From the sequence record MN882349.1: a DNA stretch of 64,000 nucleotides, one strand, 5' to 3'. The notes beneath the pieces are model-generated. The model did no database searches. It saw only the letters and a program-made list of their open reading frames with translations, and had not been told where the DNA came from. Numbering within the stretch: the first letter of the stretch is position 1; each line of letters opens with the position of its first letter. This document shows positions 9,001-55,435 of this stretch, one piece after another. Position numbers and translations under genes: made by a program. The DNA comes from Escherichia phage Ec_Makalu_003.

Positions 9001-9102
9001 TCATTCTCTATGTTCCGTGAACTTGTAGATAAACGGTTGAAGGATAATATAGGGAATCCACGCGATCCGAAGAATCCGACACAGAGGAAAATTAATGGCT
9101 AA
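6016..9102 (+). CDS. 7: baseplate wedge subunit gp7
   Basis: 1028 aa (T4 gp7 1032 aa); overlapping start/stop with genes 6 and 8. Confidence 0.85.
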   Translation: MIKAPSVTSLTIEKLSANQAYITWDDVGENFFYFVELAETRTRDGEIIPVDELSWVNLGYTADQNWFEDKNLFPEYYYKFRVAVAAEGFEQSKWIETEEFQTFKTNAYNFSMMREFNLANEFIKEKFTYDNREYVKFNTDLIQASLMKEDFVFSPEYANMTNISNYIVVDENFHEIQDHIEKVCTDINRTMLAEMNGVLYLFERFQPIVKVSNDKGQSWKAYKAFNDRVGNPVSRTCVYQSKTTTYVLGYDRIFYGRQASDTRWSADDVRFSDDTITFAKVGDENDLGFDVEVFGVFSRLTGDTTKYAEAMACSDDYLWVGAKDVIRRIRLKNTPVDTVQGSPTFGEKIFDPDIIRVTGNDKAVIQKMDVVDGKLLVFVTGEVKQRYQDPTKPENVVPSDDAGVYLIGSDGLSFQRVFGNTPQEREYIQHGFSNMSTNGDEVFISHYNHHFESILPDPETAAKYELGEAVKYSQEPTYLTDKKIHQTTFRASYDDLRIWELGPQAYYNEADYTWMRRNGVRVWITNDNRPLVVYPEVIYTQEVDTSGILDQNRVNREVYDKGTVTCYLNNVKFEGFKQYASGVMFHKNTGEIIGFYQFNYRVRDQVGVYWKPTNVAFVAELQNQVREVPWVPVHYDREQDPDLRPLLNKMTPDSFLLENENFRKFSEYYLQFLSDGSGTYYNKLKNLIKNKYPREQDAYEYLWSEMNKRNIYADKNKRDAVVRFFESRKSDFYSTKGVEASYKFLFKLLYNEDVEIEVESQAGLEYDIVVSSTNIDEDIVGRTIYTPTGRANVTYLEREYEGGRLRWRVTIHNLIGRFEEGQVIKSEKTAFEGMILVGVRGKELLSSSIDYINRSRSQYTMKIKSALPVSRYANDVMRFVHPVGFGFIGVTLLTMFINSGLSMKHTETIIQSLKNYKFDSGLPSVYPDRVADLDVDGNIKKDPLTGKALYLTSPLIGEEFPVPPEYDQENSELFHGLKASERRFAMSPLFDQSAVSFSMFRELVDKRLKDNIGNPRDPKNPTQRKING

Positions 9103-10090
9103 TGAAAATAGTGTGATCTATCGCTCAATCATTACTAGTAAATTCAGAACGGAAAAACTTCTGAATTTCTATAATTCTGTAGGCGATGGGGCAAATCAAA
9201 TTACAATTTATGGAACGTTTGGACGTTCGGAGCCGTGGTCAGAAAACGAAAAAGAGGTGGGCTTTGCCCCACCTTATCCGACCGATTCAACGGCTGGTGT
9301 TGTTGACATGTGGACCCATATGATGGGGGCGGTTAAGATTAATAAATCACTTCTTGATGCGGTTATCCCTCGTAAAGATTGGGGTGATACCGGACAGGAT
9401 AACCCGCGCACATTCTTTATCAATGACATTGTTGTTGTCAACTCAGCACCATATAACCGAACTGATGTTGGTAGCGGCTGGATGGTGTATCGCGTAACCG
9501 ATGTTCCTGATCGCGGTTACTGCTCGATTTCAAGCATTGACGCTAAAGTCGAGTGTTTGAAGTTGGGCGGAAAGTGGACACCTACTCATGAATCAATCGC
9601 GCCACCTGTAGGAAAGGGCGATTCTATTGATATGGGTGATGGGTATCGTTGGGAATATCTGTACACAATTCCACCTGATGCGGCGATCAACCGTTGCACC
9701 AATGAACATATTGTTGTACCGTTCCCCGATGAACTGCGACAAGATCCGGCGCGCTGGGGCTACGACAATGTGATCACATGGTATAATGACTATAATCTGC
9801 TTTATCGGCTGAAAGTAGTAACTTTGCGTTTTCAGGCTTATATGGACTCTGCGCAATTCCCAACTACCGCGTTAGTGGGTAATACTGGTTTCCGTCAGTT
9901 AAGCATTATCCTTAACCCATTGGAAAAGAAAGCACGCCCTAGCGATCCAGACGTTAAAGCGGTTCAAGATAAGTACCGTCCGCAAGACTTAGAGCCACAC
10001 TCAGGCGAAATGATCTACATGGAAAACCGACAACCTATCGTTCGGTCATTAGATCAAACAGAACTTGTTTCTGTACTGTTTGAGTTCTAA
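9095..10090 (+). CDS. 8: baseplate wedge subunit gp8
   Basis: 331 aa (T4 gp8 334 aa); gene order. Confidence 0.8.
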   Translation: MANENSVIYRSIITSKFRTEKLLNFYNSVGDGANQITIYGTFGRSEPWSENEKEVGFAPPYPTDSTAGVVDMWTHMMGAVKINKSLLDAVIPRKDWGDTGQDNPRTFFINDIVVVNSAPYNRTDVGSGWMVYRVTDVPDRGYCSISSIDAKVECLKLGGKWTPTHESIAPPVGKGDSIDMGDGYRWEYLYTIPPDAAINRCTNEHIVVPFPDELRQDPARWGYDNVITWYNDYNLLYRLKVVTLRFQAYMDSAQFPTTALVGNTGFRQLSIILNPLEKKARPSDPDVKAVQDKYRPQDLEPHSGEMIYMENRQPIVRSLDQTELVSVLFEF

Positions 10091-10102
10091 GTGTATGATT
10101 TA

Positions 10103-10131
10103 AAAGCCAATTCGAGAGAGTTGGCTTTTTC
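10103..10131 (+). terminator. rho-independent terminator after gene 8
   Basis: Hairpin AAAGCCAATTCGAGAGAGTTGGCTTT followed by TTTTT. Confidence 0.7.
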
Positions 10132-10142
10132 TATTTTGGGTG

Positions 10143-10170
10143 TTGACAATCTTGTCTGATAAGGTATAAT
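10143..10170 (+). promoter_or_regulatory. sigma70-type early promoter (TTGACA-16-TATAAT)
   Basis: TTGACA 10143-10148 and TATAAT 10165-10170, 30 nt upstream of the ATG at 10200 with SD GGAGGA. Confidence 0.65.
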
Positions 10171-10199
10171 GCTCACATCTAAACAACGGAGGATAAATT

Positions 10200-10457
10200 A
10201 TGGCACGTCGTAAATTTACAGATAATTGTGAAGCAATTCAGGTATCCCCTTGCGGTTGGGATGTGATCGCGAAAGGTGAAAAGATCGGAGAGATCATCGA
10301 TCATACTCATTCATCACTAGCCGATTACACCGATGAACTGTGGGAGGGTATCAACTTCATGAATGACACTAAACGATTCAAGACTATCGACGAAGCTATC
10401 TATTTTGTGTATAATCCAACTTTCGGTATGTGGACTGATAGAAAATGGCACGCGTAA
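10200..10457 (+). CDS. hypothetical protein (early cassette ORF 1)
   Basis: 85 aa; strong SD GGAGGA; first gene after the early promoter. Confidence 0.6.
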   Translation: MARRKFTDNCEAIQVSPCGWDVIAKGEKIGEIIDHTHSSLADYTDELWEGINFMNDTKRFKTIDEAIYFVYNPTFGMWTDRKWHA

Positions 10458-10774
10458 ATATTAAACGGCATTATACAATGGGTAAACCAAAACATCCAAT
10501 GCATAAAGTGTTTTGGGGCTTACATCTTCAAGAAAAATGGCATGATAACTATTGGTTTTGTGACCATGATAAGAAGTGGCATTCTCAAGATGAAGTTAAT
10601 GCGATGATGGAACAGGGTATAAAGTTTAATTACTCTAATTATGACCATAGCATTACTTGTATTCGAAAATTGAAACGGTTTATTCGAAAGAATCCACAAT
10701 TTAAAAACTTTGTGTTCTTTATGTCTCATGTTTATTTGGGGCATAGCGTTACCGTAACAGCAAAGGTTAAATAA
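10445..10774 (+). CDS. hypothetical protein (early cassette ORF 2)
   Basis: 109 aa, His/Trp-rich; start overlaps upstream stop (translational coupling). Confidence 0.55.
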   Translation: MARVNIKRHYTMGKPKHPMHKVFWGLHLQEKWHDNYWFCDHDKKWHSQDEVNAMMEQGIKFNYSNYDHSITCIRKLKRFIRKNPQFKNFVFFMSHVYLGHSVTVTAKVK

Positions 10775-11613
10775 TGGCACGACTTTCCAAACAAGAACAA
10801 AAATTACACGATCGGGCAATGGAGCTAATCAATTCAGACCGCCCATTGACATATGAAGAAAAGGAGTTTTGCTATAATAACTATCATGGAGATGGTCTAG
10901 GTGGTTCCGGTGCATTCTTTACCCCAGAGGGGCTTGCGTGGGATTTTACCATTGACGCACACTGCACCGGAAAAGTATTAGATTTGTGTGCTGGGATCGG
11001 TCGCTTATCTTTCTGTATGTTACATCGATGCAGACCAGAAAAGATCGTATGCGTCGAACTCAATCCAGAATTTTCGCGGATTGGCAAGCGACTATTACCG
11101 GAGGCAGAATGGATCACCAGCGATATATTCGAATTTGAGTCAAACGAAAAATTCGATGTGGTGATCAGCAATCCACCTTTCGGTAAAATCAATACAACCG
11201 ACACAAAGGATGTATTTGAATACACAGGCGGCGAATTTGAATTTAAGGTTATGACGTTAGGCCAGAAGTTTTCCGATGTAGGTTATTTTATTGTTCCTTC
11301 TGGTTCCGCTGGGTTTGCGTATTCTGGTAGACCTTATTATGATGGATCAGTGAAGTCTAATAAATATCTAAAGTGGAGCAAACAAACTGGCCTTGTGACT
11401 TATGCCGGATGTGGGATCGATACATCAATTTATCGCGATGAATGGCACTGCACCAACGTTTTAACAGAAGTGGTTGAGGTTCGGTATTACGAGAAAGAAG
11501 CCGTAGAAGCGCCTAAATCGCGTCCTAACGAACAAATAGAAGAAAGTAAGGAGATTACCTTACCAGAACAGGAAAGCGAGTCTGGGACGCTCTCAGACTT
11601 GTTTGACATTTAA
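10774..11613 (+). CDS. putative N6-adenine DNA methyltransferase (gamma-class motif order)
   Basis: 279 aa; motif X-like GAFFTPEGLA, motif I VLDLCAGIGRLS, motif IV VVISNPPFG in that order; TAATG overlap with upstream ORF. DNA versus RNA/protein substrate not decidable from sequence. Confidence 0.6.
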   Translation: MARLSKQEQKLHDRAMELINSDRPLTYEEKEFCYNNYHGDGLGGSGAFFTPEGLAWDFTIDAHCTGKVLDLCAGIGRLSFCMLHRCRPEKIVCVELNPEFSRIGKRLLPEAEWITSDIFEFESNEKFDVVISNPPFGKINTTDTKDVFEYTGGEFEFKVMTLGQKFSDVGYFIVPSGSAGFAYSGRPYYDGSVKSNKYLKWSKQTGLVTYAGCGIDTSIYRDEWHCTNVLTEVVEVRYYEKEAVEAPKSRPNEQIEESKEITLPEQESESGTLSDLFDI

Positions 11614-11616
11614 TTA

Positions 11617-11645
11617 AAAGCCGTCCTTGTGGGCGGCTTTTTTGT
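11617..11645 (+). terminator. rho-independent terminator after methyltransferase cassette
   Basis: Hairpin AGCCGTCCTTGTGGGCGGCT followed by TTTTTT. Confidence 0.7.
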
Positions 11646-11653: not shown

Positions 11654-11661
11654 TATAAATA
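11654..11661 (+). promoter_or_regulatory. T4-type late promoter TATAAATA upstream of gene 9
   Basis: Exact TATAAATA 28 nt upstream of the gene 9 ATG. Confidence 0.6.
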
Positions 11662-34058: not shown

Positions 34059-34646
34059 CTAAATATCTAACCAAGACAAGTCAGATCCGCCCAAGATTTT
34101 TTCGACGGCGGATCTATTTTCTTGATGATATAAGTTAAAACATGGTATCCCATGTCTACGGGCAACATAAACAGCAATTCGAGTTCCTCCCGAAACGATT
34201 CCATTAACTTCTTTCGCCCAGAATATCACACAATCTACAGGGTCATCAAGTGTCTCACCTAAGACTTGAGCAACATTTCTAGAAAACAGATTTTGCATGT
34301 ATAACGGTATAGATCGAGGATTATCATAAACGTGTTCTAATTCATCCATCGCCAGATTTTTTTGTTCTAAGGTTTGCCATGCAATCACATCATGACCGTT
34401 ATGCTTATGGTCGTAAAACTTCCAATTTGGAATGAAAATTTTTCTATAATCTGGATCGTAATACTTCATGAAAGCATTGTCCATACCGTAAGCCCCTCCA
34501 GAATGCGCTACAACGCGATTTTCTGACAATACCCTCCCAATGGTACTAGCCATTATCAAAATGTCGCTAGGCGCTTTTCTAGAGCCTATTAAAGCACATC
34601 TACGAAGTGGTTTTACTCCAAATAGATCTTGTAACTGGTCAAACAT
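34059..34646 (-). CDS. DprA/Smf-like (SLOG superfamily) Rossmann-fold protein
   Basis: 195 aa; strong SD GGAGGAAA; motifs CALIGSRKAP, VVAHSGGAYGMD, FSRNVAQVLG, IVSGGTRIAVYVARRHGIPCF resemble the DprA core. Confidence 0.6.
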   Translation of the reverse strand: MFDQLQDLFGVKPLRRCALIGSRKAPSDILIMASTIGRVLSENRVVAHSGGAYGMDNAFMKYYDPDYRKIFIPNWKFYDHKHNGHDVIAWQTLEQKNLAMDELEHVYDNPRSIPLYMQNLFSRNVAQVLGETLDDPVDCVIFWAKEVNGIVSGGTRIAVYVARRHGIPCFNLYHQENRSAVEKILGGSDLSWLDI

Positions 34647-34798
34647 AATATTTCCTCCATAGAAAGCAATATCATACTACAAGTTAATAACAAATACAAG
34701 TATCCGCGTAGCGGAAGCGAGCACAGCGAGCAATAAAACACTTCCAGTAATTGATTAATAAATGTTCGAAACAAATTTTTATTATTCTATAAGATAAG

Positions 34799-34824
34799 TC
34801 TTCGTTTTGATCATAATTTAATCA
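34799..34824. repeat. 26-bp perfect direct repeat, copy 1
   Basis: TCTTCGTTTTGATCATAATTTAATCA; identical copy at 34948-34973 within a 415-bp non-coding stretch. Confidence 0.8.
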
Positions 34825-34947
34825 TACATGTAAAAACGACACAAAAGGATATCGCTTCGCGAACTCCTACGGAGTATAACATTTGTGTTACATTATGTGG
34901 TGATTAATAATTAATCAAAGATACATTTTCTATGTTCTAAAGATCTT

Positions 34948-34973
34948 TCTTCGTTTTGATCATAATTTAATCA
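34948..34973. repeat. 26-bp perfect direct repeat, copy 2
   Basis: TCTTCGTTTTGATCATAATTTAATCA; identical to copy 1. Confidence 0.8.
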
Positions 34974-35024
34974 AACAGTATTAATATTGTCCATATGTAA
35001 ACTAAAATTATGTCAGTAATAGAT

Positions 35025-35052
35025 ACAAAAAAAGCCGCCCCGAAGGACGGCT
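35025..35052 (-). terminator. rho-independent terminator (minus strand)
   Basis: Hairpin AGCCGTCCTTCGGGGCGGCT followed by a T-run on the minus strand, downstream of the ORF at 35061-35498. Confidence 0.65.
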
Positions 35053-35060
35053 AATGTTAA

Positions 35061-35498
35061 TTATTTGTTGATAACGATCTGATTTCGGCGAATGGTGACA
35101 TTGCTCTTAGAGATGACCAGATCATCCGGCACTACGTTAGTTTTGTATGGTTGGAAGCGAACAAGCATCTGATTGCGTTTAGACCCTTCCTTAATCTTGA
35201 TTTCCATCTGGATATTGTTGCCTACGTGAGCAACCGCAATTTCACCTTTATTCTCATAGACCCACTTGCTGGTAACGTCTCCCGCAAAAGCCTTAATAAC
35301 TTGCAATGCTTCGTCGTATGCGGTAGAGCTGTGAACTTTCAGAAGGCCAGCCGTAGCAAGACGGGAGCAGGTGATCGCCGGAGATTGCCAAACATCAACA
35401 TTAATTTGCTCAATCAGAGTAACACCGCCCTGATCAACTGCTTTGAATGCTTCGAACATTGCCTTTTTCATTGCTACGTGGTTTTTACGGAATTTCAT
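35061..35498 (-). CDS. hypothetical protein
   Basis: 145 aa minus-strand ORF, last gene of a three-gene early cassette; no recognisable motif. Confidence 0.6.
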   Translation of the reverse strand: MKFRKNHVAMKKAMFEAFKAVDQGGVTLIEQINVDVWQSPAITCSRLATAGLLKVHSSTAYDEALQVIKAFAGDVTSKWVYENKGEIAVAHVGNNIQMEIKIKEGSKRNQMLVRFQPYKTNVVPDDLVISKSNVTIRRNQIVINK

Positions 35499-35544
35499 AA
35501 TTAGTCACCTCTATTGATTAGTTATTCAGAATATTAATTACAAA

Positions 35545-35820
35545 TCAGGACATTGCCCGTTTGAATGCGTCCATTATAACAGTGTTATTTGGCTTGTCAA
35601 CACGTTTTTGAACTTTATTTTTAAATTTTTTGTTTATGTGGTGTTTACGATAAACAACCTTTTCACGGCTGGCGTAAGCCTCGCGTGCATCTTTTACCAT
35701 CAACCATGCCTTAGCCGCATCTTGTCCGCTGATCCCGCCAATCTTCTTAGCAATATCAACAAAATTAAGACCGTGATCTTCGCGTAGCATGTAAACCATT
35801 AACGCTGTTTTCTTGTCCAT
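35545..35820 (-). CDS. hypothetical protein with putative helix-turn-helix
   Basis: 91 aa; segment LNFVDIAKKIGGISGQDAAKAW resembles an HTH; basic C-terminus. Confidence 0.5.
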   Translation of the reverse strand: MDKKTALMVYMLREDHGLNFVDIAKKIGGISGQDAAKAWLMVKDAREAYASREKVVYRKHHINKKFKNKVQKRVDKPNNTVIMDAFKRAMS

Positions 35821-36017
35821 TACTTCGCCTCATTGACGATTAACAGGATAGTGATCAGTACCGGAAACTGGATCATGACAGTACCAATAAACCGGATAAA
35901 CGCATTTTCTGACTTCCACACATGACATGCGACTAGCTGATAGACCATTGTTGCAACCAAAGCCAGAAAATACATCTCGATTGGCGTTTCTTTGATCAAT
36001 CGTACAATCTCATTCAT
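35820..36017 (-). CDS. hypothetical small membrane protein
   Basis: 65 aa with two hydrophobic stretches (YFLALVATMVYQLVA; VMIQFPVLITILLIV). Confidence 0.5.
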   Translation of the reverse strand: MNEIVRLIKETPIEMYFLALVATMVYQLVACHVWKSENAFIRFIGTVMIQFPVLITILLIVNEAK

Positions 36018-36143
36018 ACTTCACCTCATACATTCATAAACACAACAACGAATAGGACAGTAACAGTTATTAAAGCCATTTTCAACCCCATATTCATAAT
36101 ATTTTCTTCGCCTCACGATGACAGTAGCATGTCGATGCGTGCC

Positions 36144-36171
36144 ATTATAGGCATCTAAATCGCTCTGTCAA
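36144..36171 (-). promoter_or_regulatory. sigma70-type early promoter (TTGACA-16-TATAAT, minus strand)
   Basis: Minus-strand TTGACA (36166-36171) and TATAAT (36144-36149), just downstream of the hoc terminator; drives the 36017-35061 cassette. Confidence 0.55.
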
Positions 36172-36180
36172 GCACAAAAA

Positions 36181-36207
36181 CAAAAAAGCCACCCCGAAGG
36201 ATGGCTG
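36181..36207 (-). terminator. rho-independent terminator after hoc (minus strand)
   Basis: Hairpin AGCCATCCTTCGGGGTGGCT followed by TTTTTT on the minus strand. Confidence 0.7.
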
Positions 36208-36217
36208 ATAGATTTCA

Positions 36218-37420
36218 TTAATCACGAATGCGTAGAACTCGCTCTAACGTCTCTCGGTCCAGTTTATGTAACTCTTTGGAATGATACATGAAACCATTGC
36301 GAGATTCCATGCAAGTGCAATCACTATATTTTTCTTCCGCTGCCGCGATTGTCTCCAGATCTTTGGCGTACTTGCTGGTTGAATAAACTTCTCGGTTACG
36401 CCACTCTAAACCAGCCTCATTGAATTTAACAATCTCGTCAAATACCCACCATCCAATGTAGATAAATGAAGTTTTGCGCCACGGGATCGGGTGTACGTAA
36501 CGAAACATTTTAACAACTTCCATTGAACATTTTCTACTTGTACTTGTTGCAACTTCTACTGTTTCATCTTCGATCTGTTGATATAGTTTAGCAACACACC
36601 AGAATTTGGCTGTGTCATCGTAAGTAGCACTCTCTTTGAACAGATGACCGTCTGGCATGATAGAAAATCCTTCCAGTGCTTCGCCGACCTCACTACCGAT
36701 TAGAGTCGGTGACATTTGCCCTTCGCGCTGCAAATACCAGTTATATTTGATCGTCAAATTAGGCATACCGCTAGAATCGCCTACAATGTTCTCTGACACA
36801 ACATAATTAAGTAAGATCTCATTACCTAGTGCCACGGTCTTTGATTCCACCACATCCTGATCTACGTTCATTGTTGCCAGCATGATTTTAGTCGATGCGC
36901 TATCGGCTGAATCTTCCGACTCACCCCACACTTTTACAGTATACACGCCGTTTTTATCTGCTGTAAATTTTTGGATCGTAATATCCTGTGTTGTGTCTAT
37001 AACTTCTTCGCCCTTACTCCAACTATAATGTAGTTCATAGTTGTCTGCTGGAGTCTTCCCACCCGAAAATTTTACTGTTGCATGTAATTCTACGTTTGTT
37101 TGTGATGATACGTAGAATTGCTGCGGTTCGGTGATATTTACGATTAATTCAGCTTCTTCCATGAGGAAAACTTCAGATTCTACTGATTCCATCGTATCGG
37201 TATCTTGTACCGTTACTTTATAGCTACCCGCATTTTCACTTGTTGCGTCTGCTACAGTTAGCGTAGCTGTGCTATTTTCATGCGGTTGGTCGTCTTTTGT
37301 CCATGTATATGTCAAATTGCTGGGTAATGGTTCGTCACCCGCTACAGTCGCCGTTAAGGTGAAACCATCTCCAGCAAGAAAACATCTTTTGTTAGATTGT
37401 ATTGATACTGTGAAAGCCAT
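36218..37420 (-). CDS. hoc: head outer capsid protein Hoc
   Basis: 400 aa; Ig-like repeats; C-terminus YVHPIPWRKTSFIYIGWWVFDEI...ESRNGFMYHSKEL matches the recalled T4 Hoc C-terminus. Confidence 0.9.
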   Translation of the reverse strand: MAFTVSIQSNKRCFLAGDGFTLTATVAGDEPLPSNLTYTWTKDDQPHENSTATLTVADATSENAGSYKVTVQDTDTMESVESEVFLMEEAELIVNITEPQQFYVSSQTNVELHATVKFSGGKTPADNYELHYSWSKGEEVIDTTQDITIQKFTADKNGVYTVKVWGESEDSADSASTKIMLATMNVDQDVVESKTVALGNEILLNYVVSENIVGDSSGMPNLTIKYNWYLQREGQMSPTLIGSEVGEALEGFSIMPDGHLFKESATYDDTAKFWCVAKLYQQIEDETVEVATSTSRKCSMEVVKMFRYVHPIPWRKTSFIYIGWWVFDEIVKFNEAGLEWRNREVYSTSKYAKDLETIAAAEEKYSDCTCMESRNGFMYHSKELHKLDRETLERVLRIRD

Positions 37421-37515
37421 ATAAAGCCACTCCCATAGAAAATCCGAATTTAATTAATTGAAATAGTTGATTGCTATCAACCAGATAACCATTGCGAGAT
37501 TCCAATACATGAGTA

Positions 37516-37680
37516 TTAGAATAGTGATGTAACGAGGCCGAAATAGTATCGATCTCGTCTTGGTATTTGTTCTGTTATAAAGTCTGCTGTACTAACAACA
37601 ATCTTTAACAGAAGTGGATGACCAACGGAGCCATAAACCGGACCTTCTGTTTGATGTAATACATTGATTTTGTTAGACAT
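37516..37680 (-). CDS. hypothetical small protein (54 aa)
   Basis: Minus-strand ORF with SD AGAGGA; MSNKINVLHQTEGPVYGSVGHPLLLKIVVSTADFITEQIPRRDRYYFGLVTSLF. Below the size cut-off of the ORF track. Confidence 0.45.
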   Translation of the reverse strand: MSNKINVLHQTEGPVYGSVGHPLLLKIVVSTADFITEQIPRRDRYYFGLVTSLF

Positions 37681-37758
37681 GTAGTATCCTCTTTTAATTG
37701 CATAACGGAACTACAATTAAAATTATAACAAATATTTCACAACTTTTATCACCCAAAA

Positions 37759-38475
37759 TTACTTGAGTGTGTGGAATTGGCTATGTTTAGTCTCTCTCAC
37801 CTTGACAGACCCATCGCGTTTGATATAATAGATCAGTGACTTGAGGGTGTCGTGTACATACGCGTGCGGGAAACGCTCTGGATACTTCTTCCAATCTGGA
37901 GTATTAACGATCCAGTCGAAAATCCACCACGGGCAGGAGTAGTAACCACGACCGCCACCGATCAAGCAAATGGTCGGACGGAAACCAGTAAGATCACAAA
38001 ATGAATCAGTGTCATGTGCAGGAGAACGATGCTCTGCTTCGTCAGAGAAAATGTTTGCTACCGGAGATTCCACTTTAACTTCCGGTACAACCACAATTTC
38101 AACTGGTACTGTGTGTGGTTTGGCTTCTTCTACAACTGTAACTGGTTCTTCTTTTTGTTCTGGTTCTTTCATTGCTTCAACCAGAGACGGATCAACTTCG
38201 TCGAATACCACTTTATCATCTGCGGTGTCTGCTGCCAGAATAAGATCGTTAATACTGGTTCCTTCTGCCGGAGTTTCTTCTTCCATTTCGGAAGCCAGTT
38301 TAGTTAATTCGGTTTCTACGAACTCGATCATGTTCTCTAGTGATAAAGTCTTTTTGACCTTAATATCAAATTGTTTTGCGTAGTCAGCTAATTCTGTTTT
38401 AGCTGTTTTCTGTGCTTCTTTGTCGTCGGACGCCGCAATAGCGCGGAGTTCTTCGAAATATTCTTTATCAAACAT
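37759..38475 (-). CDS. inh: inhibitor of prohead protease Inh
   Basis: 238 aa (T4 Inh 226 aa); acidic central region; C-terminal CPWWIFDWI motif shared with Hoc; position next to hoc. Confidence 0.75.
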   Translation of the reverse strand: MFDKEYFEELRAIAASDDKEAQKTAKTELADYAKQFDIKVKKTLSLENMIEFVETELTKLASEMEEETPAEGTSINDLILAADTADDKVVFDEVDPSLVEAMKEPEQKEEPVTVVEEAKPHTVPVEIVVVPEVKVESPVANIFSDEAEHRSPAHDTDSFCDLTGFRPTICLIGGGRGYYSCPWWIFDWIVNTPDWKKYPERFPHAYVHDTLKSLIYYIKRDGSVKVRETKHSQFHTLK

Positions 38476-48754: not shown

Positions 48755-49575
48755 TTAGTCACCTCACCGAAAATTGTAAATTGTCTACGATTCTCATCGC
48801 CGAAAGATTCTACTACGTCGTTTACCTTGATGCAAGTCCCGCGCGGTAAAATTACTTCACATTCGCAAGGATTCCATGCAATAGACCCAACAACAAAACC
48901 TTTATGATCTTTTACGTCAATTACCCATGATACATTACAAGAATGTTGCATCTTTCCGGTCATTGATTCATATCGATTCTCACAATAAAGGCTAGTGCTG
49001 TTTGAAAGCCATCCTCCAAAGATGATCGGTGTCATGCTGGTCGATACAAAGTTTTTAAAGGTAAATTCCTTATCTTCAATAATACGCTCTATTGTCTGAA
49101 TGTCAAGATGTTGACCGCGATAAAGAGTACCGTTTAACTTTTCGGTTTTATCCATGACACAATCCATCAAATCGACAATCTCTGATATCTCATCGGTCAT
49201 GTCTTCTTCCCCTAAGAGAGCACCATTTACCCATTCGTATTGTTCAGACACATAATCGCAGATTGCATTATATTCTGCTGGGGTTATGTTGTTATGTTTG
49301 TAATGTTTGAATACATTATCTCCAAAATCTTCGGAATGTACTTCATACATCACATTAATGATTTTCTTGACAAATCCATAATCTTGCGTTTCTCGCTCAA
49401 GGAAACGGATAACTTTCACGTAATCATCAAAGTTAATATGATCGCTGATCATTTCAGTGATCATGTAACCATTAATCCCCTCAATGCCATATGTTTCGAT
49501 GTAATTATCCATACGTTCCATCATTGATTCGCGTGATTCTTCGGAAAGGCGAAAATCCTGTAATTTCTTGAACAT
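48751..49575 (-). CDS. ADP-ribosyltransferase, Alt-like paralog
   Basis: 274 aa; R-S-E motifs (LYRGQ, FVSTSMTPIIFGGW, ECEVILPRG) parallel those in the Alt C-terminus. Confidence 0.7.
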   Translation of the reverse strand: MFKKLQDFRLSEESRESMMERMDNYIETYGIEGINGYMITEMISDHINFDDYVKVIRFLERETQDYGFVKKIINVMYEVHSEDFGDNVFKHYKHNNITPAEYNAICDYVSEQYEWVNGALLGEEDMTDEISEIVDLMDCVMDKTEKLNGTLYRGQHLDIQTIERIIEDKEFTFKNFVSTSMTPIIFGGWLSNSTSLYCENRYESMTGKMQHSCNVSWVIDVKDHKGFVVGSIAWNPCECEVILPRGTCIKVNDVVESFGDENRRQFTIFGEVTK

Positions 49576-49593
49576 TTTAAATCTCCCATATAA

Positions 49594-49628
49594 CAGAAAA
49601 CGGGGCTAGTATAAAACTAGTCCCCGTT
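49594..49628 (-). terminator. terminator-like hairpin after alt (minus strand)
   Basis: Imperfect hairpin AACGGGGACTAGTTTTATACTAGCCCCGTT followed by TTTTCTG on the minus strand. Confidence 0.5.
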
Positions 49629-49653
49629 TGAGTCAACCATTATTTCTTAAAAA

Positions 49654-51705
49654 TTACATTTTAAATTTATCCGGCATAGCGTCTACAGACACAAGATCAG
49701 CGATAAGCTGACGTAGAGTTGCCTTATCTGCTTTCTTACGTTCGGTTTTAGCTTCGGTAATGAAGCTGGAGAAAGACAGGTCAGAAGCAGGTTTAACAAC
49801 ACCTTCACGGATGAATGCATCACCGTCCGCGATCATCTCACCAGATTCTTGTAATGCTGCCAGTTCATTTTTGTTCATAATATGTGCCTCAATGTAATAA
49901 GTTTCTTGTGAATCCGTCGATGCCGTAGCACGAGTTACCGTATCAAAGGATAACACAACACCGCGAGGAAGTAAAATCTCGCATTCTTTGTAAGCAAATG
50001 CTTTGTTACCTACTGGCAATACAGGGATGTTTTCCGCGCCAGCAATGGAGAAAGCAACATTAGCGCCACCTTCACCGCGAGATCCAGCCATAGAATCAAC
50101 ACCAGCAACGGCACTAGCCACGTTTGCATTCCATCCACCAAAAATATTAGGTGCAAGGGAAGTGCTCACATAGTTTTTAAAGTAAAACGCTTTTTGCTTA
50201 CGTGCAGTTTCCCACATTTGAGAACGGAAGTCCATACCACGATACAAGATAGTACCTGGATCAAGTTTAACACCATAGTTAGCAAATGCGTTATCCAGTG
50301 CATCACACATCTTGACCAATTCTTCTGGGTCTGCGATGCCTTCAAACTCTTCCAGCTTACGGTCGGTTAGGAAGTTGTTCATATTGATGTATGCTGCATC
50401 CGCATATTCGCTCAACACAAAACCTTCCGCGCCAGGCAGATCAAGATCAATATCTGCCATCATTTCACCCATGTTGCTAGCAATTGCTTCAAACATACCG
50501 GAAGCAACATTACGCAGGGCATCGGTTTTAATCTGCGTGATGTGACTACGCAGCATTTCAGCTTTTACATCTGCTGGCATAGACTGGTCGACGCGATCCA
50601 TTGCCAGGGCGGTGATCTTGTTTTCGAATACTTCCTCGCTCATGATTTCTTTTAAGCGTTTGATTGATGCTGCGATAACTTCCGCAGACAACGGATCATA
50701 TTGATCCTGAACTTTTACCAGTTCGCTTACTGCATATTTTGCATCGGCTTCGCTTTCAAAAATAGTACGCATGAAACCATAGCGAGTGATAATATCACTT
50801 GTCCAGTCATTCAGAGAACGGGCGGTTGAACGTTCTAAGGCTTGACGGTCAATCAGAGTATTAAACTGTTTCTTAGGTTCTGCTTCGGTGATATCTTCTT
50901 CCGGTTTAAGATTAATTTTTTCTGGATGATTCACATAGTCGCTGTTATAGGTCGCTTGAGTTTTCAGCATTTCTTCTTTAGTCAAACGAGATTTAGCCGC
51001 TACGCGTTGTTCTGCTTCCGCGTTTCGTTCTTCTTCCGACACAAGACTAGCCGCATACGCCTCATCTTTAGTCAGAGATTCACCAGTAGCCTTAGATACC
51101 CAGCGATCACCTAAATCACTTTCTACTTTAGTGAACAGGGATTCATCGAGTTTAATCCCTTTAATCTTATCAATCGCCATCCCGCGACGTTTGACAACAA
51201 CTAAAGCGATCTTTTTGCTGGTCATTACTTCCTGCTGGAATACTTCAAACTTCGGTGTACGACGCACCAAACGCTCTATAACGCGCTTAACCAGTTCGGT
51301 CTTACCTTTCATGCGGGATACGTTAAAACGGAACATAACAGCGTCTAATTGCGCTTTACGGGCTGTTTCCATGACCACATCAAAAGCACTTGACATAACT
51401 GCAATCGGGTTATCTCCTAGACCATTTTTAAGCTGTACAATACGACCGCTTTTGTTCATTTCGCACAGTACAACATGTGCGGTCTTGTCACCCATACGAA
51501 TGATTTTAGGTGTTTTGTTGGTGAAGTTACAAAGACGGACAATCACATCTTTATCGCGTGTCTGTACTGCAAAAAGCTGTTTAGGATTCTGCTTAGGCTT
51601 TAAGCACTGTACCGGAGCAATACTGCCAAAGTTTTCTTCCTCTTCCGTCAACAGCCATTTCTCGAAAGATTCAATCATTAGATCGTCGATTTCTAAGTTA
51701 AACAT
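49654..51705 (-). CDS. alt: ADP-ribosyltransferase Alt
   Basis: 683 aa (T4 Alt 682 aa); C-terminal domain with ILYRGMD, NYVSTSLAPNIFGGW, ECEILLPRG. Confidence 0.85.
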   Translation of the reverse strand: MFNLEIDDLMIESFEKWLLTEEEENFGSIAPVQCLKPKQNPKQLFAVQTRDKDVIVRLCNFTNKTPKIIRMGDKTAHVVLCEMNKSGRIVQLKNGLGDNPIAVMSSAFDVVMETARKAQLDAVMFRFNVSRMKGKTELVKRVIERLVRRTPKFEVFQQEVMTSKKIALVVVKRRGMAIDKIKGIKLDESLFTKVESDLGDRWVSKATGESLTKDEAYAASLVSEEERNAEAEQRVAAKSRLTKEEMLKTQATYNSDYVNHPEKINLKPEEDITEAEPKKQFNTLIDRQALERSTARSLNDWTSDIITRYGFMRTIFESEADAKYAVSELVKVQDQYDPLSAEVIAASIKRLKEIMSEEVFENKITALAMDRVDQSMPADVKAEMLRSHITQIKTDALRNVASGMFEAIASNMGEMMADIDLDLPGAEGFVLSEYADAAYINMNNFLTDRKLEEFEGIADPEELVKMCDALDNAFANYGVKLDPGTILYRGMDFRSQMWETARKQKAFYFKNYVSTSLAPNIFGGWNANVASAVAGVDSMAGSRGEGGANVAFSIAGAENIPVLPVGNKAFAYKECEILLPRGVVLSFDTVTRATASTDSQETYYIEAHIMNKNELAALQESGEMIADGDAFIREGVVKPASDLSFSSFITEAKTERKKADKATLRQLIADLVSVDAMPDKFKM

Positions 51706-51746
51706 TTTATATCCTCTAGTTGATAACCTATAAACCTATATTTATG

Positions 51747-51771
51747 AAAAAGGGGCTTAACACCCCCATTT
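51747..51771 (-). terminator. rho-independent terminator (minus strand)
   Basis: Hairpin GGGGGTGTTAAGCCCC followed by TTTTT on the minus strand. Confidence 0.6.
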
Positions 51772-51772
51772 A

Positions 51773-51985
51773 TTATAATGCACCATCGAGCAATTGCTCT
51801 AAGGTGTATCCTGAATAGTCTTTTTCAATCAGGATATATTTTCCTACTCGTTTAATACAACCGCGCATTTCAACGTATTCTGCGTAGTTGATGGTGCGAG
51901 TTGTTCCATCTTCTAGTAAAGCAGTACCGATTTCGTTAATGCGGTCATAAGTTACGTCGGTAATGATGATTTCGATGTTAGCCAT
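51773..51985 (-). CDS. hypothetical protein
   Basis: 70 aa; starts MANIE, sharing its first 15 nt with the ORF at 54109-54360; preceded by promoter cassette C1. Confidence 0.55.
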   Translation of the reverse strand: MANIEIIITDVTYDRINEIGTALLEDGTTRTINYAEYVEMRGCIKRVGKYILIEKDYSGYTLEQLLDGAL

Positions 51986-52021
51986 TTGATACTCCTTAGT
52001 AGTTCGTTTCGGTATGGGTGT

Positions 52022-52050
52022 ATTATGATATACACCCTCTGTTATGTCAA
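52022..52050 (-). promoter_or_regulatory. repeated early promoter cassette C1 (TTGACA-17-CATAAT)
   Basis: Minus-strand -35 TTGACA, 17-nt spacer, -10 CATAAT; inverted repeat GGGTGTAT/ATACACCC spans the -10; conserved leader and AGGAG SD. Confidence 0.6.
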
Positions 52051-52056
52051 CAACTT

Positions 52057-52236
52057 TTAGAACATTTTTGAAATTAATTCTGCTTTGATTTCGCAGAGAA
52101 CATCTAAAGATTTCTCGTCACCCGCTTTTGCTGCTTCTGCTTGCATTTTTGAAATGGCTTCAATGTCAGTGCAATTATAAGCCGCTTGAACTTTAGCGAT
52201 TGCGATGATTGCCGATTCGATGGTTAAGTGTTTCAT
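52057..52236 (-). CDS. hypothetical small protein (59 aa)
   Basis: Minus-strand ORF preceded by cassette C2 with SD AGGAG; below track cut-off. Confidence 0.5.
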   Translation of the reverse strand: MKHLTIESAIIAIAKVQAAYNCTDIEAISKMQAEAAKAGDEKSLDVLCEIKAELISKMF

Positions 52237-52268
52237 GTTTGATTCTCCTTTCGTTTCGGTATGTGTGC

Positions 52269-52297
52269 AGTATAGGGGATCGCCGATCCCCTGTCAA
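52269..52297 (-). promoter_or_regulatory. repeated early promoter cassette C2 (TTGACA-17-TATACT)
   Basis: The 17-nt spacer is the perfect palindrome GGGGATCGGCGATCCCC; same cassette as C10. Confidence 0.6.
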
Positions 52298-52304
52298 CAA
52301 CTTT

Positions 52305-52823
52305 TTAGTTATTTTTTAATTGCTCATCTTGCAATAATGCAATCACATGCTGGCGATGTTCTTCCGATTGAGGAACACCGAAAAAGTTTGTTTTGTAGAA
52401 ATACTCTAATCGGTCTTCTCGTGTGCTCTCTTCCATCATGATCGCGGGTAGTCCAAGATTTCGGAAACGTCGCTTTTCTGCTGGCGTAAAATCACTGTAA
52501 TACAACATAGAATCATCATTACCAGCAATGCTAAACTCATCCTTCATAAAGGAGAATATTGCGTTTAAACGCTGTTTACCGTCCACGATTTCGATCTCAT
52601 AGCGAGAGCCATCATCAATCTTAGCCATTGCGATAGCACCAACCGGAAAATCATTAATCAGGTTTTCGATAAACATACGTTTGTTTTCGGTGTCCCATAC
52701 CAAAGGACGCTGATAATCTGGGTTCATGTTGATATAGCCATCTTCTAACCACGCCTCATAAACAGAGATGACAAAGTTTTTAGTATTGGTATAGTAACGG
52801 CGTTTAGGCGTTAAACGGTTCAT
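52305..52823 (-). CDS. DUF262-like (ParB/Srx-fold) protein
   Basis: 172 aa from ATG 52823 (SD AGGAG); DYQRPLVW and VDGKQRL resemble the DUF262 N-terminal motifs (DGQQR type); last gene of a five-gene operon. Confidence 0.55.
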   Translation of the reverse strand: MNRLTPKRRYYTNTKNFVISVYEAWLEDGYINMNPDYQRPLVWDTENKRMFIENLINDFPVGAIAMAKIDDGSRYEIEIVDGKQRLNAIFSFMKDEFSIAGNDDSMLYYSDFTPAEKRRFRNLGLPAIMMEESTREDRLEYFYKTNFFGVPQSEEHRQHVIALLQDEQLKNN

Positions 52824-52824
52824 G

Positions 52825-53157
52825 TTATAGTCTCCTGAATGGATCATCACGTAAATCAATATCTTTTAAGAACTCATCCCATGAATGGCGGATAATGTTC
52901 TTAATTCTCCAGATAAGCGCAGGGATTGAACGCTCTCCCATCTGGAAGTAAGGATCATATGATCCATATGCCCAATATGCTACTACAATTCCACAATCGG
53001 CGCAATAATATTCTATTTCACTTGCTGGCGACCAAAGTCCATCAATATGATCACGGATCTTGCTTTCGATGTTATGGCTATGGCAATCAGGGCAACGGAT
53101 GCAATGACCTTGTTTATCGTAATTTGACGTTAGCGAATACTTAAACAATCTCATCAT
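52825..53157 (-). CDS. zinc-ribbon protein
   Basis: 110 aa; CIRCPDC ... CADCG (CxxC...CxxC); start overlaps upstream stop. Confidence 0.55.
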   Translation of the reverse strand: MMRLFKYSLTSNYDKQGHCIRCPDCHSHNIESKIRDHIDGLWSPASEIEYYCADCGIVVAYWAYGSYDPYFQMGERSIPALIWRIKNIIRHSWDEFLKDIDLRDDPFRRL

Positions 53158-53870
53158 AGATCCTTATTGGCTTCAAATACTGCCTTTGCGAATCCTCGCG
53201 GGGTAAGTGACCTGATAGTCTTTGTTCTGGTTCCTTTCCCGCCTAGCTTAGAATGCTGTTTACTGTACCCTTTATTAATCTGCAACGGTTTCTTTTCTGG
53301 CATTATAAAGCCTTGTCCGGTCCATAAGCAAGTCTTTTTCGGGTACATATCACGGGCGGCAATATACTCAGGAAACGTAGGATGCTTATCATCTTCCGGC
53401 AAATAACCGCCATATTCCCACGGATGGAACATGTAATCAGGCTTACGCCACATGCTAGAGATAACGCTTACAGGATTCTCTATCATGTAGGGAACTCCTA
53501 GCCATTCACCCAAATAAGCGGTTATTTTAGCTGCCCTTACATCATGAACTTGAATTAATGGTCCTTGTTCTCGTTTCTTTCGTTCAAAGTGCGCAGCGCC
53601 ACTAACAGCTAAATTGGTGCATGGTGGGAATGCAAAGATAATATCCGGTTTCCCCCATTCAAGGTCCATTGCTCTTTCCAGCCAATTTAAATCAATCCAT
53701 GTGTTTACATATGTAATGTTTGGATGTTCAAATCTGGTATTATATTTTTTGTATGTACCGTGGTCGCCATCGTCAGCATTAAAGCAGATCACCTTATGAC
53801 CTGCTTTAGCCCATTCTAACCCCATTATCCCCGATCCGTCAAAGTTGCAGAATATTAATTTTTGTTTCAT
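53154..53870 (-). CDS. C5-cytosine DNA methyltransferase-like protein (compact)
   Basis: 238 aa; motif I-like LIFCNFDGSGIMGLEWAKAGHKVICFNADD, motif IV-like IIFAFPPCTNLAVSG (Pro-Cys), motif VI-like MIENP; region after motif VI too short for a typical target-recognition domain. Confidence 0.55.
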   Translation of the reverse strand: MKQKLIFCNFDGSGIMGLEWAKAGHKVICFNADDGDHGTYKKYNTRFEHPNITYVNTWIDLNWLERAMDLEWGKPDIIFAFPPCTNLAVSGAAHFERKKREQGPLIQVHDVRAAKITAYLGEWLGVPYMIENPVSVISSMWRKPDYMFHPWEYGGYLPEDDKHPTFPEYIAARDMYPKKTCLWTGQGFIMPEKKPLQINKGYSKQHSKLGGKGTRTKTIRSLTPRGFAKAVFEANKDL

Positions 53871-54112
53871 ATACGCCCCTTTAACCCAACACAGATTTTA
53901 GAAGGTTCTTTGCCGTGCCACATTAAGTAAATTCCGTTAATGCGTCCTTGTTTTGTATATGATTCTTTTCTGATCTTCTTATAGTGTCGTGCTTCCTCAG
54001 CCGATTGTTTAGAATGTCGATCATAAAGGAAGAGGAACAAAGGCCAACCATTAGCGGCCTTAATGCAGTTATTCAAAAATTCCTTATTTCGTTTAATTAA
54101 TTTTCTTTTCAC
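53867..54112 (-). CDS. hypothetical basic protein
   Basis: 81 aa; GTG start overlapping the upstream stop; Lys/Arg-rich. Confidence 0.45.
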   Translation of the reverse strand: MKRKLIKRNKEFLNNCIKAANGWPLFLFLYDRHSKQSAEEARHYKKIRKESYTKQGRINGIYLMWHGKEPSKICVGLKGRI

Positions 54113-54360
54113 GCTGCCCCCATTGGTTTGATAGTAACAGAATCTAAAAGACCTTTGTTAGCCAGTTCGCGGCAAGTTTTCAGATCCGCAACTTCCCAGC
54201 CAGCCGCAATAAGGTTATCAATGAGGCTGTTAGCAACTTCTTCGCTCATGAAAGAGCACTGTTTGCCGATGGTGTAGCGTACACGCTGTAATTTCAGTTT
54301 ACGGAAGCCTTTAACGTTCAGGTCTTTAGCGATTTTCTTTGCGGTTTCGATGTTAGCCAT
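54109..54360 (-). CDS. hypothetical protein
   Basis: 83 aa; starts MANIE; first gene after cassette C3. Confidence 0.55.
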   Translation of the reverse strand: MANIETAKKIAKDLNVKGFRKLKLQRVRYTIGKQCSFMSEEVANSLIDNLIAAGWEVADLKTCRELANKGLLDSVTIKPMGAA

Positions 54361-54400
54361 TGTTTGATTCTCCTAAGTGGTATCTCGTCTTGATGGTTGT

Positions 54401-54429
54401 ATTGTAGGGGAGTTATCCTCCCCTGTCAA
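54401..54429 (-). promoter_or_regulatory. repeated early promoter cassette C3 (TTGACA-17-TACAAT)
   Basis: Spacer is the palindrome GGGGAGGATAACTCCCC; SD AGGAG downstream. Confidence 0.6.
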
Positions 54430-54443
54430 CACTTTTTATAAAA

Positions 54444-54611
54444 TTATTTGTTAATTTCTGGTGCGTTGCTAGGATAGTAACCTTCTTTAACTCCGAGGTA
54501 TTTTGCAACCATCCCTACAATCTTCTGTGCTACTACAATGTCAAATTTCAGATAATCTTCGCCGTGGGTTTCAATGATATATGCTTCACATGCTGCTTTA
54601 GTCTCGAACAT
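54444..54611 (-). CDS. hypothetical small protein (55 aa), paralog of 57726-57893
   Basis: MFETKAACEAYIIETHGEDYLKFDIVVAQKIVGMVAKYLGVKEGYYPSNAPEINK; near-identical to the ORF at 57726-57893. Confidence 0.55.
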   Translation of the reverse strand: MFETKAACEAYIIETHGEDYLKFDIVVAQKIVGMVAKYLGVKEGYYPSNAPEINK

Positions 54612-54644
54612 TTTGATTCTCCTATTTCGTTTCGGTATGTGTGT

Positions 54645-54673
54645 ATTATAGGGGATCTCCCGATCCCCGTCAA
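54645..54673 (-). promoter_or_regulatory. repeated early promoter cassette C4 (TTGACG-17-TATAAT)
   Basis: Palindromic spacer GGGATCGGGAGATCCCC; SD AGGAG downstream. Confidence 0.6.
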
Positions 54674-54687
54674 CAACTTTTTTAAAA

Positions 54688-54969
54688 TTATTCGTGATTA
54701 GTTTCGATATTGTGCATTTTGCACCAGTTCAGCCAATCGCCAAGATCTTGATAGTTGATGCTTTTATCTGCTGCCATCGTTTTTGTCTTGATACCCATAT
54801 GTGCGTTATGAGTAAGCATTTTTACAGTGAACTCAATTTTATCGCCTTTAGCTTTAACATCAACCAGTTTGGTCCACTGGCTACCAGCACCGCGAATGTT
54901 CATACCAACGATGTTTCCGATGTATGCTTCTTTGTTGTTCAGGATTTCGGTTGCTTTGATGAATTTCAT
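54688..54969 (-). CDS. hypothetical protein
   Basis: 93 aa; preceded by cassette C5. Confidence 0.55.
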   Translation of the reverse strand: MKFIKATEILNNKEAYIGNIVGMNIRGAGSQWTKLVDVKAKGDKIEFTVKMLTHNAHMGIKTKTMAADKSINYQDLGDWLNWCKMHNIETNHE

Positions 54970-55002
54970 TTTTGATTCTCCAGTTCGTTTCGGTATGGGT
55001 GT

Positions 55003-55031
55003 ATTATGCTATGTTCTTACTTTGGTGTCAA
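55003..55031 (-). promoter_or_regulatory. repeated early promoter cassette C5 (TTGACA-17-CATAAT)
   Basis: Same -35/-10/leader/SD architecture as C1; no palindrome in the spacer. Confidence 0.55.
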
Positions 55032-55039
55032 CAACTTTT

Positions 55040-55309: not shown

Positions 55310-55348
55310 TGTTTGATTCTCCTAAGTGGTATCTCGTTTCGATGGGTG

Positions 55349-55428: not shown

Positions 55429-55435
55429 AATAAAA

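Follow-up and report, generated by a model that had tools for sequence, protein, structure and literature searches.

A gene cassette between the baseplate genes 8 and 9 of Escherichia phage Ec_Makalu_003 ends in a methyltransferase of 279 amino acids (aa). From sequence comparison we consider it probable that this protein is an early-expressed orphan gamma-class enzyme, likely an N6-adenine DNA methyltransferase, which is tethered to the sliding clamp and carried in a composite cassette of the PeSL (promoter-early stem-loop) type. The DNA that we analysed, hereafter the window, is a stretch of 64,000 nucleotides of this genome (record MN882349.1). At its extreme C-terminus the methyltransferase is, by sequence, a near-copy of the gp43 peptide that anchors the phage polymerase to the gp45 clamp, so that the enzyme probably methylates DNA while riding the replication machinery. 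This predicted clamp-binding tail is the most informative feature of the protein and was absent from an earlier note on the window, which had described an insulated early methyltransferase cassette. The parts of the protein that carry the argument are as follows.

10774..11613, + strand: orphan class-I S-adenosylmethionine (SAM) methyltransferase, 279 aa; phrog_3820; catalytic core about aa 1-237
10915..10926, + strand: motif X, FFTP, aa 48-51; GAFFTP invariant in the family (columns G46-P51)
10981..11004, + strand: motif I, DLCAGIGR, aa 70-77, SAM-binding loop; L71, C72, A73, G74, I75 and G76 invariant
11170..11181, + strand: motif IV, NPPF, aa 133-136, catalytic amino-methyltransferase motif; N133, P134, P135, F136 and G137 invariant
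11485..11586, + strand: acidic flexible linker rich in Pro, Ser and Glu, aa 238-271; predicted local distance difference test score (pLDDT) below 50 at residues 245-273
11587..11610, + strand: C-terminal peptide TLSDLFDI, predicted gp45 sliding-clamp-binding tail; resembles the end of RB49 gp43

The C-terminal tail and its likeness to clamp-binding peptides

The methyltransferase ends in GTLSDLFDI, and the DNA polymerase gp43 of RB49, a phage of the same genus (Krischvirus), ends in ASLTDLFDI. At the nucleotide level the last 18 positions of the methyltransferase gene and of gene 43 are identical at 17 of 18. The RB49 gp43 tail aligns in turn with the C-terminal residues ASLFDMFD of the RB69 polymerase (the end of RB69 gp43 reads SLFDMFDF), and Shamoo and Steitz are said to have crystallised the C-terminal peptide of that polymerase bound to the RB69 clamp in 1999. 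T4 gp43 ends in ASLDFLFG. Clamp ligands of the late-transcription machinery are of a related kind: the end of RB49 gp55, SLDQFYEIEN, aligns with SLDFLYEA of T4 gp55 in the late-transcription complex 7D7C, and both gp55 and gp33 bind gp45 via a C-terminal LDFL motif (PMC9690074).

About 150 kb of Krischvirus sequence, with about 740 open reading frames (ORFs), showed the strict tail pattern L.D[LF]F at the C-terminus of gp43 and of the methyltransferase only, and a looser pattern applied to 1027 ORFs recovered gp43, gp55 and the methyltransferase only. Neither RB49 Dam nor RB49p189 has a clamp-type tail. This restriction of the pattern to known gp45 partners and the methyltransferase bears on an alternative that we regard as unlikely, in which the protein is a DNA methyltransferase but its tail is a chance likeness, a remnant of recombination with gene 43, or the ligand of some other partner. 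The 17/18-nucleotide identity with the end of gene 43 makes an origin by recombination possible and thus speaks for the alternative, as do the tail-less members of the family and the RB16-type tails considered below; the tail has nevertheless been kept while the linker changed. The linker has diverged between the family members P0001 and P0002 (67% identical), and P0002 still ends in GTLTDLFDI; the tail of P0004 reads GSLSMFDI. A relative carries a T4-type variant, TLDFVDF, and P0003 (locus L010) has the tail TKTLDFVDFSEI, a T4-like LDF variant. In the window protein the peptide sits on a flexible segment that is acidic, Pro/Ser-rich, predicted to be disordered and variable in sequence, and 238-aa homologues on enterobacterial chromosomes lack the C-terminal extension that the phage members carry.

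Homologues on elements replicated by bacterial hosts provide a further comparison. The homologue on pTTS12, a conjugative Pseudomonas megaplasmid, is 322 aa long and ends in FAQLSLFDAA after a long Pro/Ala-rich linker; Hda binds the beta clamp through the motif QLSLF (PMC7049699). In 55 of 120 relatives of the pTTS12 homologue the motif Q[LM]x[LIM]F lay within the last 14 aa, where shuffled sequences would give 0.02, and it had no match elsewhere in 31,602 residues. A broader beta-clamp pattern was present in 75 of the 120 (0.8 expected). We also ran a profile search over 1.84 billion representatives, which gave 343 clusters (50% identity) at E <= 1e-30. Among the best 150 representatives the strict motif was found in 18 (0.1 expected), many of them with terminal QLTLF, QLALF or QLSLFA, and 47 of the 96 that bear a C-terminal extension show L[FW] among their final 12 residues (4.3 expected), a dipeptide found in only 2.2% of internal linker windows. 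Such independent enrichment of the beta-clamp motif at plasmid and bacterial C-termini is hard to reconcile with a tail that has nothing to do with clamps. Since the beta-clamp motif occurs on host-replicated elements and the gp43-like tail in T4-like phages, the tail type follows the clamp type. We lean slightly towards the broader proposal that the enzyme belongs to a family of small clamp-coupled DNA methyltransferases borne by mobile genetic elements, comprising about 340 clusters, in which the clamp peptide would be swapped according to the replicon (gp45 or beta clamp). No methyltransferase is known among the established beta-clamp partners; the literature that we searched reports no methyltransferase partner of gp45 and no clamp-binding methyltransferase in phages or plasmids.

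Another tail type was observed in Pseudotevenvirus (RB16), Slopekvirus, POP12 and metagenomic-relative methyltransferases, which share a strongly conserved C-terminal [DN]LFTF[TRKV]IE after a Pro/Glu-rich linker (L008 11841-12572; L009 16001-16777; L016 1501-2286; L013 7334-8176). The scanned stretches of RB16 (40 kb), Matisse (33 kb) and L013 (18 kb) contained no other protein with an FTFxIE tail, and the idea of a second peptide network built on this tail was set aside.

The catalytic core and its likely substrate

In an alignment of 30 homologues at 45-95% identity the gamma-class order X-I-IV is present, with FFTP, AGIG (aa 73-76) and NPPF invariant. The earlier note had taken the protein for an orphan methyltransferase with FFTP, GxGxG and NPPF in gamma-class order. 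An orphan class-I methyltransferase is supported, and the order, FFTP and NPPF stand; motif I, by contrast, is GxG (CAGIGR, aa 72-77) and not GxGxG. A model calculated from the 30-sequence alignment with AlphaFold2 (AF2; pLDDT 83, predicted template modelling score 0.80) consists of a single Rossmann domain with a disordered tail. Structural alignments ran over 207-214 residues with DNA adenine methyltransferases (2f8l, HsdM, PacII and MmeI) and over 165-173 residues with RNA methyltransferases, while Foldseek returned generic Rossmann matches. Together, profiles and predicted fold favour a gamma-class amino-methyltransferase without fixing its substrate.

The profile search that had been proposed in the earlier note to decide between DNA and RNA or protein methyltransferases proved indecisive. 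Best matches among PHROG and PADLOC models were DNA methyltransferases: phrog_3820, annotated "DNA methyltransferase" (4e-115), the MADS DNA methyltransferase mad2 (8e-16), and Type II methyltransferases (to 7e-9). In Pfam and NCBIfam the best matches were RNA or protein models. Pfam gave MTS at 4.9e-9 (score 36.5), then Eco57I at 2.2e-6 (28.3, cut-off 25.3), with N6_Mtase at 16.3 below its cut-off of 20.4; the best NCBIfam matches were PrmC (35.6/199.1), L3 glutamine methyltransferase (27.3/229.7) and RsmC (27.0/295), all far below cut-off. Sequence and profile searches of the PDB gave weak, mixed matches, including PH1948 and RsmC, and some GenBank records name the protein "release factor glutamine methyltransferase". 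On the strength of sequence profiles alone, a DNA methyltransferase cannot be told from an RNA methyltransferase here.

These matches and names are what a different reading of the protein draws on, together with the lack of a target-recognition domain (TRD) and of any detected modified nucleoside in the DNA of the Krischvirus TB34. According to this reading, an RNA or protein methyltransferase (RsmC/RsmD-like for m2G, METTL5/TrmN6-like for m6A, or PrmC-like for glutamine) would modify host translation early in infection. We think this improbable. The PrmC and RsmC scores reach only a fraction of their thresholds, and the extent of the matches is telling: those to DNA-methyltransferase profiles start at aa 35-46 and cover the invariant GAFFTP, whereas those to RNA- and protein-methyltransferase profiles start at aa 59-66, past motif X, and miss it. 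Clamp tails of the gp43 or QLSLF type would make little sense on an enzyme acting on RNA or protein, and the replication-gene neighbourhoods and the fusion and adjacency to DNA methylases described next also count against such an enzyme.

Homologues turn up in phages that are not related to one another, on megaplasmids and in chromosomal islands, a scattered distribution that fits the horizontal acquisition proposed in the earlier note. A tblastn search matched 288 phage records, and those from Escherichia came down in essence to the 58 or so Krischvirus genomes together with RB16 and RB43; from these counts we infer that the T-even genera containing hydroxymethylcytosine lack the gene. The gene is part of the replication cluster in RB16, Matisse, POP12 and L013, where primase gene 61 and helicase gene 41 flank it, and in the Brevibacterium siphovirus Rousseau it adjoins RusA, a replication initiator and DnaB. 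The neighbourhoods of a Citrobacter chromosomal island and of pTTS12 held no functional clue. As a whole the genomic context of the homologues supports DNA as the substrate. The Dickeya jumbo phage JA29 (L019 1501-2670) has a homologue of 389 aa that is fused to the C-terminal part of an N6_N4_Mtase DNA methylase (3.5e-9); after the fusion gene come a small ORF annotated "methyltransferase" and the gene of a complete N6_N4 DNA methylase.

We conclude that the 279-aa protein is probably an orphan gamma-class DNA methyltransferase specific for adenine N6. A number of observations weigh against this enzyme or its tether. The AF2 model contains no TRD and no conserved partner gene was found, and the curated profile matches are ambiguous. 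High-performance liquid chromatography-mass spectrometry of TB34 nucleosides found no detectable modified DNA (PMC13390438), and TB34 carries the methyltransferase gene, so that any methylation has to be either rare or beyond the sensitivity of that assay. As to the tail, the RB16/Slopekvirus type is not close to the tails of the gp43 proteins of the same phages, SLN[DT]LFGDW or SLN[DT]LFGDDW, with which it shares a (D/N)LF core only. The homologues of the Aeromonas T4-like phage CC2, of two jumbo phages, of a siphovirus and of enterobacterial chromosomes have no tail. For the RB16/Slopekvirus/POP12 subgroup gp45 is the suspected partner, and clamp binding there is plausible, a weaker case than that of the window enzyme.

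The closely related Krischviruses SAP and TB34 are 99.96% identical, and SAP DNA has been reported to contain glucosyl-methyl-cytosine while that of TB34 was unmodified (PMC13390438). Known pathway genes are absent, and as far as is visible the difference is unrelated to the cassette. We found no methylome for Krischvirus or RB43 in the literature, and papers on Slopekvirus DNA modification do not list the methyltransferase gene.

Other methyltransferase genes were also noted. RB49 encodes Dam, outside the window. At window 53157-53870 (- strand) lies a second gene annotated as a methyltransferase, 98.7% identical to RB49p189 ("DNA methyltransferase", 238 aa, with an FPPC motif), for which we found no Pfam match and no clamp-type tail. 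With the cassette enzyme, the RB49p189-like gene and Dam, the phage therefore has three candidate methyltransferases.

Cassette anatomy, PeSL layout and the two small ORFs

The window region matches Escherichia phage Ec_Makalu_002 at 99.8% identity and belongs to an RB49-like coliphage of the genus Krischvirus; RB49, Phi1, GEC-3S and about 55 other genomes of the genus are 95-98% identical to it. Some 58 Krischvirus genomes contain the cassette with its methyltransferase, and the annotation of RB49 already lists it as RB49p140-143, in the gene 8/gene 9 interval. Apart from the methyltransferase gene its elements are as follows.

9095..10090, + strand: gp8 baseplate wedge gene, upstream boundary of the insertion; Pfam Phage-Gp8 2.2e-143; phrog_977
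10102..10129, + strand: intrinsic terminator 1, 12-bp stem, 4-nt loop, T-run; -15.6 kcal/mol, z -4.18
10143..10170, + strand: sigma-70 early-type promoter, TTGACA at 10143-10148, 16-nt spacer, TATAAT at 10165-10170; 12/12 match
10188-10192, + strand: Shine-Dalgarno sequence GGAGG
10200..10457, + strand: ORF85; phrog_16603; first gene of a two-gene module independent of the methyltransferase
10445..10774, + strand: ORF109; phrog_12630; overlaps ORF85 by 13 nt
11616..11641, + strand: intrinsic terminator 2, 11-bp stem, 4-nt loop, T-run; -17.7 kcal/mol, z -4.99
11654..11661, + strand: T4-type late promoter TATAAATA for gene 9; the same element lies 5' of gene 9 in T4 and in L010
11689..12543, + strand: gp9 baseplate/tail-fibre connector gene, downstream boundary; Pfam T4_gp9_10_N 1.4e-40

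The first terminator, the TTGACA/TATAAT promoter, the three overlapping ORFs, the second terminator and the late promoter are thus all where the earlier note had placed them. None of 200 shuffles folded as stably as terminator 1, which is the stem-loop half of a PeSL-type element. The promoter lies 13 nt downstream of this -15.6 kcal/mol hairpin and upstream of ORF85, and is one of two perfect sigma-70 sites on the + strand of the window. The methyltransferase ORF starts within the end of ORF109, with an overlap of 1 nt (TAATG). Beside the methyltransferase there is no endonuclease gene; its neighbours are gp8, the small ORFans ORF85 and ORF109, and gp9.

In T4, genes 8 and 9 are indeed adjacent, and the gap of 63 nt between them holds a terminator and then TATAAATA. 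It follows that the Krischvirus cassette sits exactly at the ancestral terminator/late-promoter junction, and comparison with this junction supports the view that an insulated unit driven by sigma-70 has been inserted here relative to T4. The ends AAAGCC...GGCTTTT are common to the two bracketing terminators in the window (10102-10129 and 11616-11641) and in the divergent relative L010 (9911-9937 and 10773-10798); the loci compared also included L024 3160-3185. Shared ends in the cassette and a single terminator in T4 are compatible with insertion by stem-loop recombination, as in the PeSL model. The three cassette ORFs and gp9 all start with ATGGCAC, encoding Met-Ala-Arg or Met-Ala-Gln (10200, 10445, 10774 and 11689), which may reflect a common translation-initiation preference or chance.

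About 50 PeSL elements were described in RB49 and phi1 by Arbiol et al. 2010 (PMC2839356). In a PeSL a promoter with the sigma-70 consensus is paired with a terminator stem-loop, and the element mostly lies 5' of ORFans; the few found inside virion modules were proposed to block the spill-over of early transcription into late genes, and promoter and terminator activity in vivo was demonstrated for other PeSLs (PMC2839356). PeSL cassettes also occur in other T4-like phages (PMC2839356; Comeau et al. 2014, PMC4122927). Arbiol et al. 2010 mention neither the 8/9 locus nor any methyltransferase (PMC2839356). The cassette has the sequence features of a PeSL, namely a consensus promoter and a stable stem-loop in an intergenic position 5' of an ORFan. 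Its regulatory layout is of the published PeSL type, and the cassette itself is not new. Since it is annotated in RB49 and the layout has been published, the earlier finding is, as written, an ordinary one.

The earlier note had presented the two small ORFs as partners of the methyltransferase, and this part of its account does not survive the comparison with other phages. In L010, L011 and L012, which derive from a divergent metagenomic relative, the methyltransferase (63-64% identical) stands alone between gp8 and gp9, and the L010-type slot retains the terminator, the TTGACA/TATAAT promoter and the closing terminator fused to TATAAATA. Conversely, the Vequintavirus HMD-6 has the ORF85 and ORF109 pair (67% and 70% identity), adjacent and with the same 13-nt overlap, and no methyltransferase, and RudolfGeigy has ORF109 alone. 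Small ORFs also lie 5' of the RB16 and Matisse methyltransferases and are unrelated to ORF85 and ORF109. A role for the small ORFs as conserved methyltransferase partners was rejected on these grounds. By sequence, the cassette is a composite of two independent modules, the ORF85 and ORF109 pair and the orphan methyltransferase.

If the three ORFs instead formed one system, with the small proteins as specificity or regulatory subunits, their 13-nt and 1-nt overlaps would reflect translational coupling from the one promoter, and the equal Krischvirus counts for ORF85 (58 genomes at >=90% identity) and the methyltransferase (58) would be expected. We give this very little credence, given the separate occurrence of the modules, the unrelated upstream ORFs of RB16 and Matisse, the split of ORF85 in the RB49 reference record, and the two identity classes of ORF109 beside a methyltransferase that is >=94% identical across Krischvirus. 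No Pfam, NCBIfam or PADLOC family matched ORF85 or ORF109. ORF85 was found in Krischvirus and in three further records at 60-80% identity, including the Vequintavirus-like HMD-6 at 66.7%, and Vequintavirus phages hold homologues of ORF109 at 67-70% identity.

Matches to ORF109 fell into two classes, at least 95% identity (19 records) and 60-80% (69 records); in the rows listed, Krischvirus phages stood near 72% and Vequintavirus at 67-69%. ORF85 and the methyltransferase, which flank it, are both at least 94% identical across Krischvirus, and the contrast suggests allelic replacement within the cassette. In the RB49 reference record NC_005066, ORF85 is annotated as two coding sequences (RB49p140 and RB49p141) and the tblastn alignment came in two pieces (window 10200-10457; L001 2699-2945). 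It is intact in the newer RB49 record OZ035808 and in all other Krischvirus genomes, and the split is either a laboratory-strain frameshift or an old sequencing error.

It has also to be considered that the cassette is selfish cargo shuffled by PeSLs, without benefit to the phage and with an inactive or irrelevant methyltransferase. PeSL-flanked ORFans have been described as mobile and nonessential, PeSL recombination yields mini-circles, and the common AAAGCC...GGCTTTT ends of the flanking terminators would suit such a history. An idle gene would not readily account for catalytic motifs that are all invariant among the 30 homologues, for a conserved tail, or for the fact that about 58 Krischvirus genomes, and a relative only 63-64% identical, have kept the gene at this site, and we consider the selfish-cargo explanation highly improbable.

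Two other regions of the window show related features. A minus-strand island at 34059-38475 (-), between the gp24-like and uvsW genes, has among its ORFs a Hoc-like protein with an Ig/PKD domain and a DUF2774 protein, and carries perfect sigma-70 promoters at 36171 (-), 35600 (-) and 37802 (+). One of these lies directly 3' of a hairpin with a T-run, so that the island is another late-region insertion of the PeSL type. At 49000-63300 (-) there is a dense array of near-consensus sigma-70 promoters (11-12/12 matches), most of them preceded by a conserved A-rich upstream element, ...AAAAAGTTG/GTG. This array is a hyperplastic early region with repeated PeSLs.

Proposed mechanism and comparison with known systems

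We propose that the cassette is a PeSL-type early unit that was inserted at the ancestral 8/9 terminator/late-promoter junction. Host RNA polymerase would transcribe it early from the sigma-70 promoter, and the flanking terminators would separate early from late transcription. By its tail the enzyme would then attach to gp45 clamps that have been loaded on phage DNA in replication, and would methylate the nascent duplex, most likely at adenine N6, before the quickly synthesised and otherwise unmodified, cytosine-containing DNA is packaged. The tether may offset the absent recognition domain and let methylation keep pace with replication. Restriction evasion is a plausible purpose, and the anti-restriction role that the earlier note gave the cassette is likewise inferred. 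Clamp binding, a DNA substrate, N6-adenine chemistry and an anti-restriction benefit are thus predictions for the window enzyme.

The cassette and its PeSL layout are known, and the clamp-binding methyltransferase appears to be the new element. If the tail works as predicted, methylation would be coupled to replication via the clamp in a T4-like phage and in many plasmids, a coupling so far established for eukaryotic DNMT1 only, and DNMT1-PCNA would have a counterpart in prokaryotes and viruses. TRD-less enzymes could then methylate nascent DNA processively at the fork and outrun restriction, for example during explosive phage replication or plasmid entry, and this would explain how hundreds of fast-replicating genome copies become fully methylated in phages with ordinary cytosines. 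The gp45 and beta-clamp "tool belts" would gain a new class of client, and a C-terminal clamp motif could serve as a signature that separates DNA-directed from RNA-directed members of ambiguous methyltransferase families.

Several known systems resemble parts of this arrangement. The PeSLs of RB49 and phi1 likewise place a strong sigma-70 consensus promoter and a terminator stem-loop directly 5' of ORFans; in the cassette the stem-loop precedes the -35 box, and the unit is closed by a second terminator fused to a late promoter. In a restriction-modification system the cognate endonuclease gene adjoins the methyltransferase, whereas the cassette has none. With the orphan anti-restriction methyltransferases of phages, such as the T4-family Dam, the window enzyme has in common that it is an orphan lacking an adjacent endonuclease and that its phage has ordinary cytosines; it is of a different class and family, and the C-terminus of RB49 Dam bears no clamp-type tail. 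Gamma-class N6-adenine DNA methyltransferases (M.TaqI, HsdM, the Eco57I family, MmeI and lmo1582/PDB 2f8l) differ from the window protein in that it has neither a TRD nor a specificity subunit.

With the gp45 partners gp43, gp55 and gp33 of the T4 family the protein shares a short hydrophobic and acidic peptide at the extreme C-terminus. Known carriers of such tails are the polymerase and late-transcription factors, whereas the window protein is a methyltransferase whose binding is predicted. Plasmid and bacterial family members end in QLSLFDAA, QLDLFAEAA or QLTLF, which corresponds to the bacterial beta-clamp motif QL[SD]LF (QLSLF in Hda), and the tail of the window protein is the phage-clamp version, not the beta-clamp version. 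The closest functional likeness is to DNMT1 and PCNA, where a DNA methyltransferase is coupled to a replication clamp by a short linear motif and the coupling favours methylation of newly replicated DNA (PMC9690074). There is no homology between the two proteins: DNMT1 is large, acts on C5 of cytosine and has its PCNA-interacting peptide (PIP) box at the N-terminus, whereas the window protein joins an amino-methyltransferase core of about 235 aa to a C-terminal motif.

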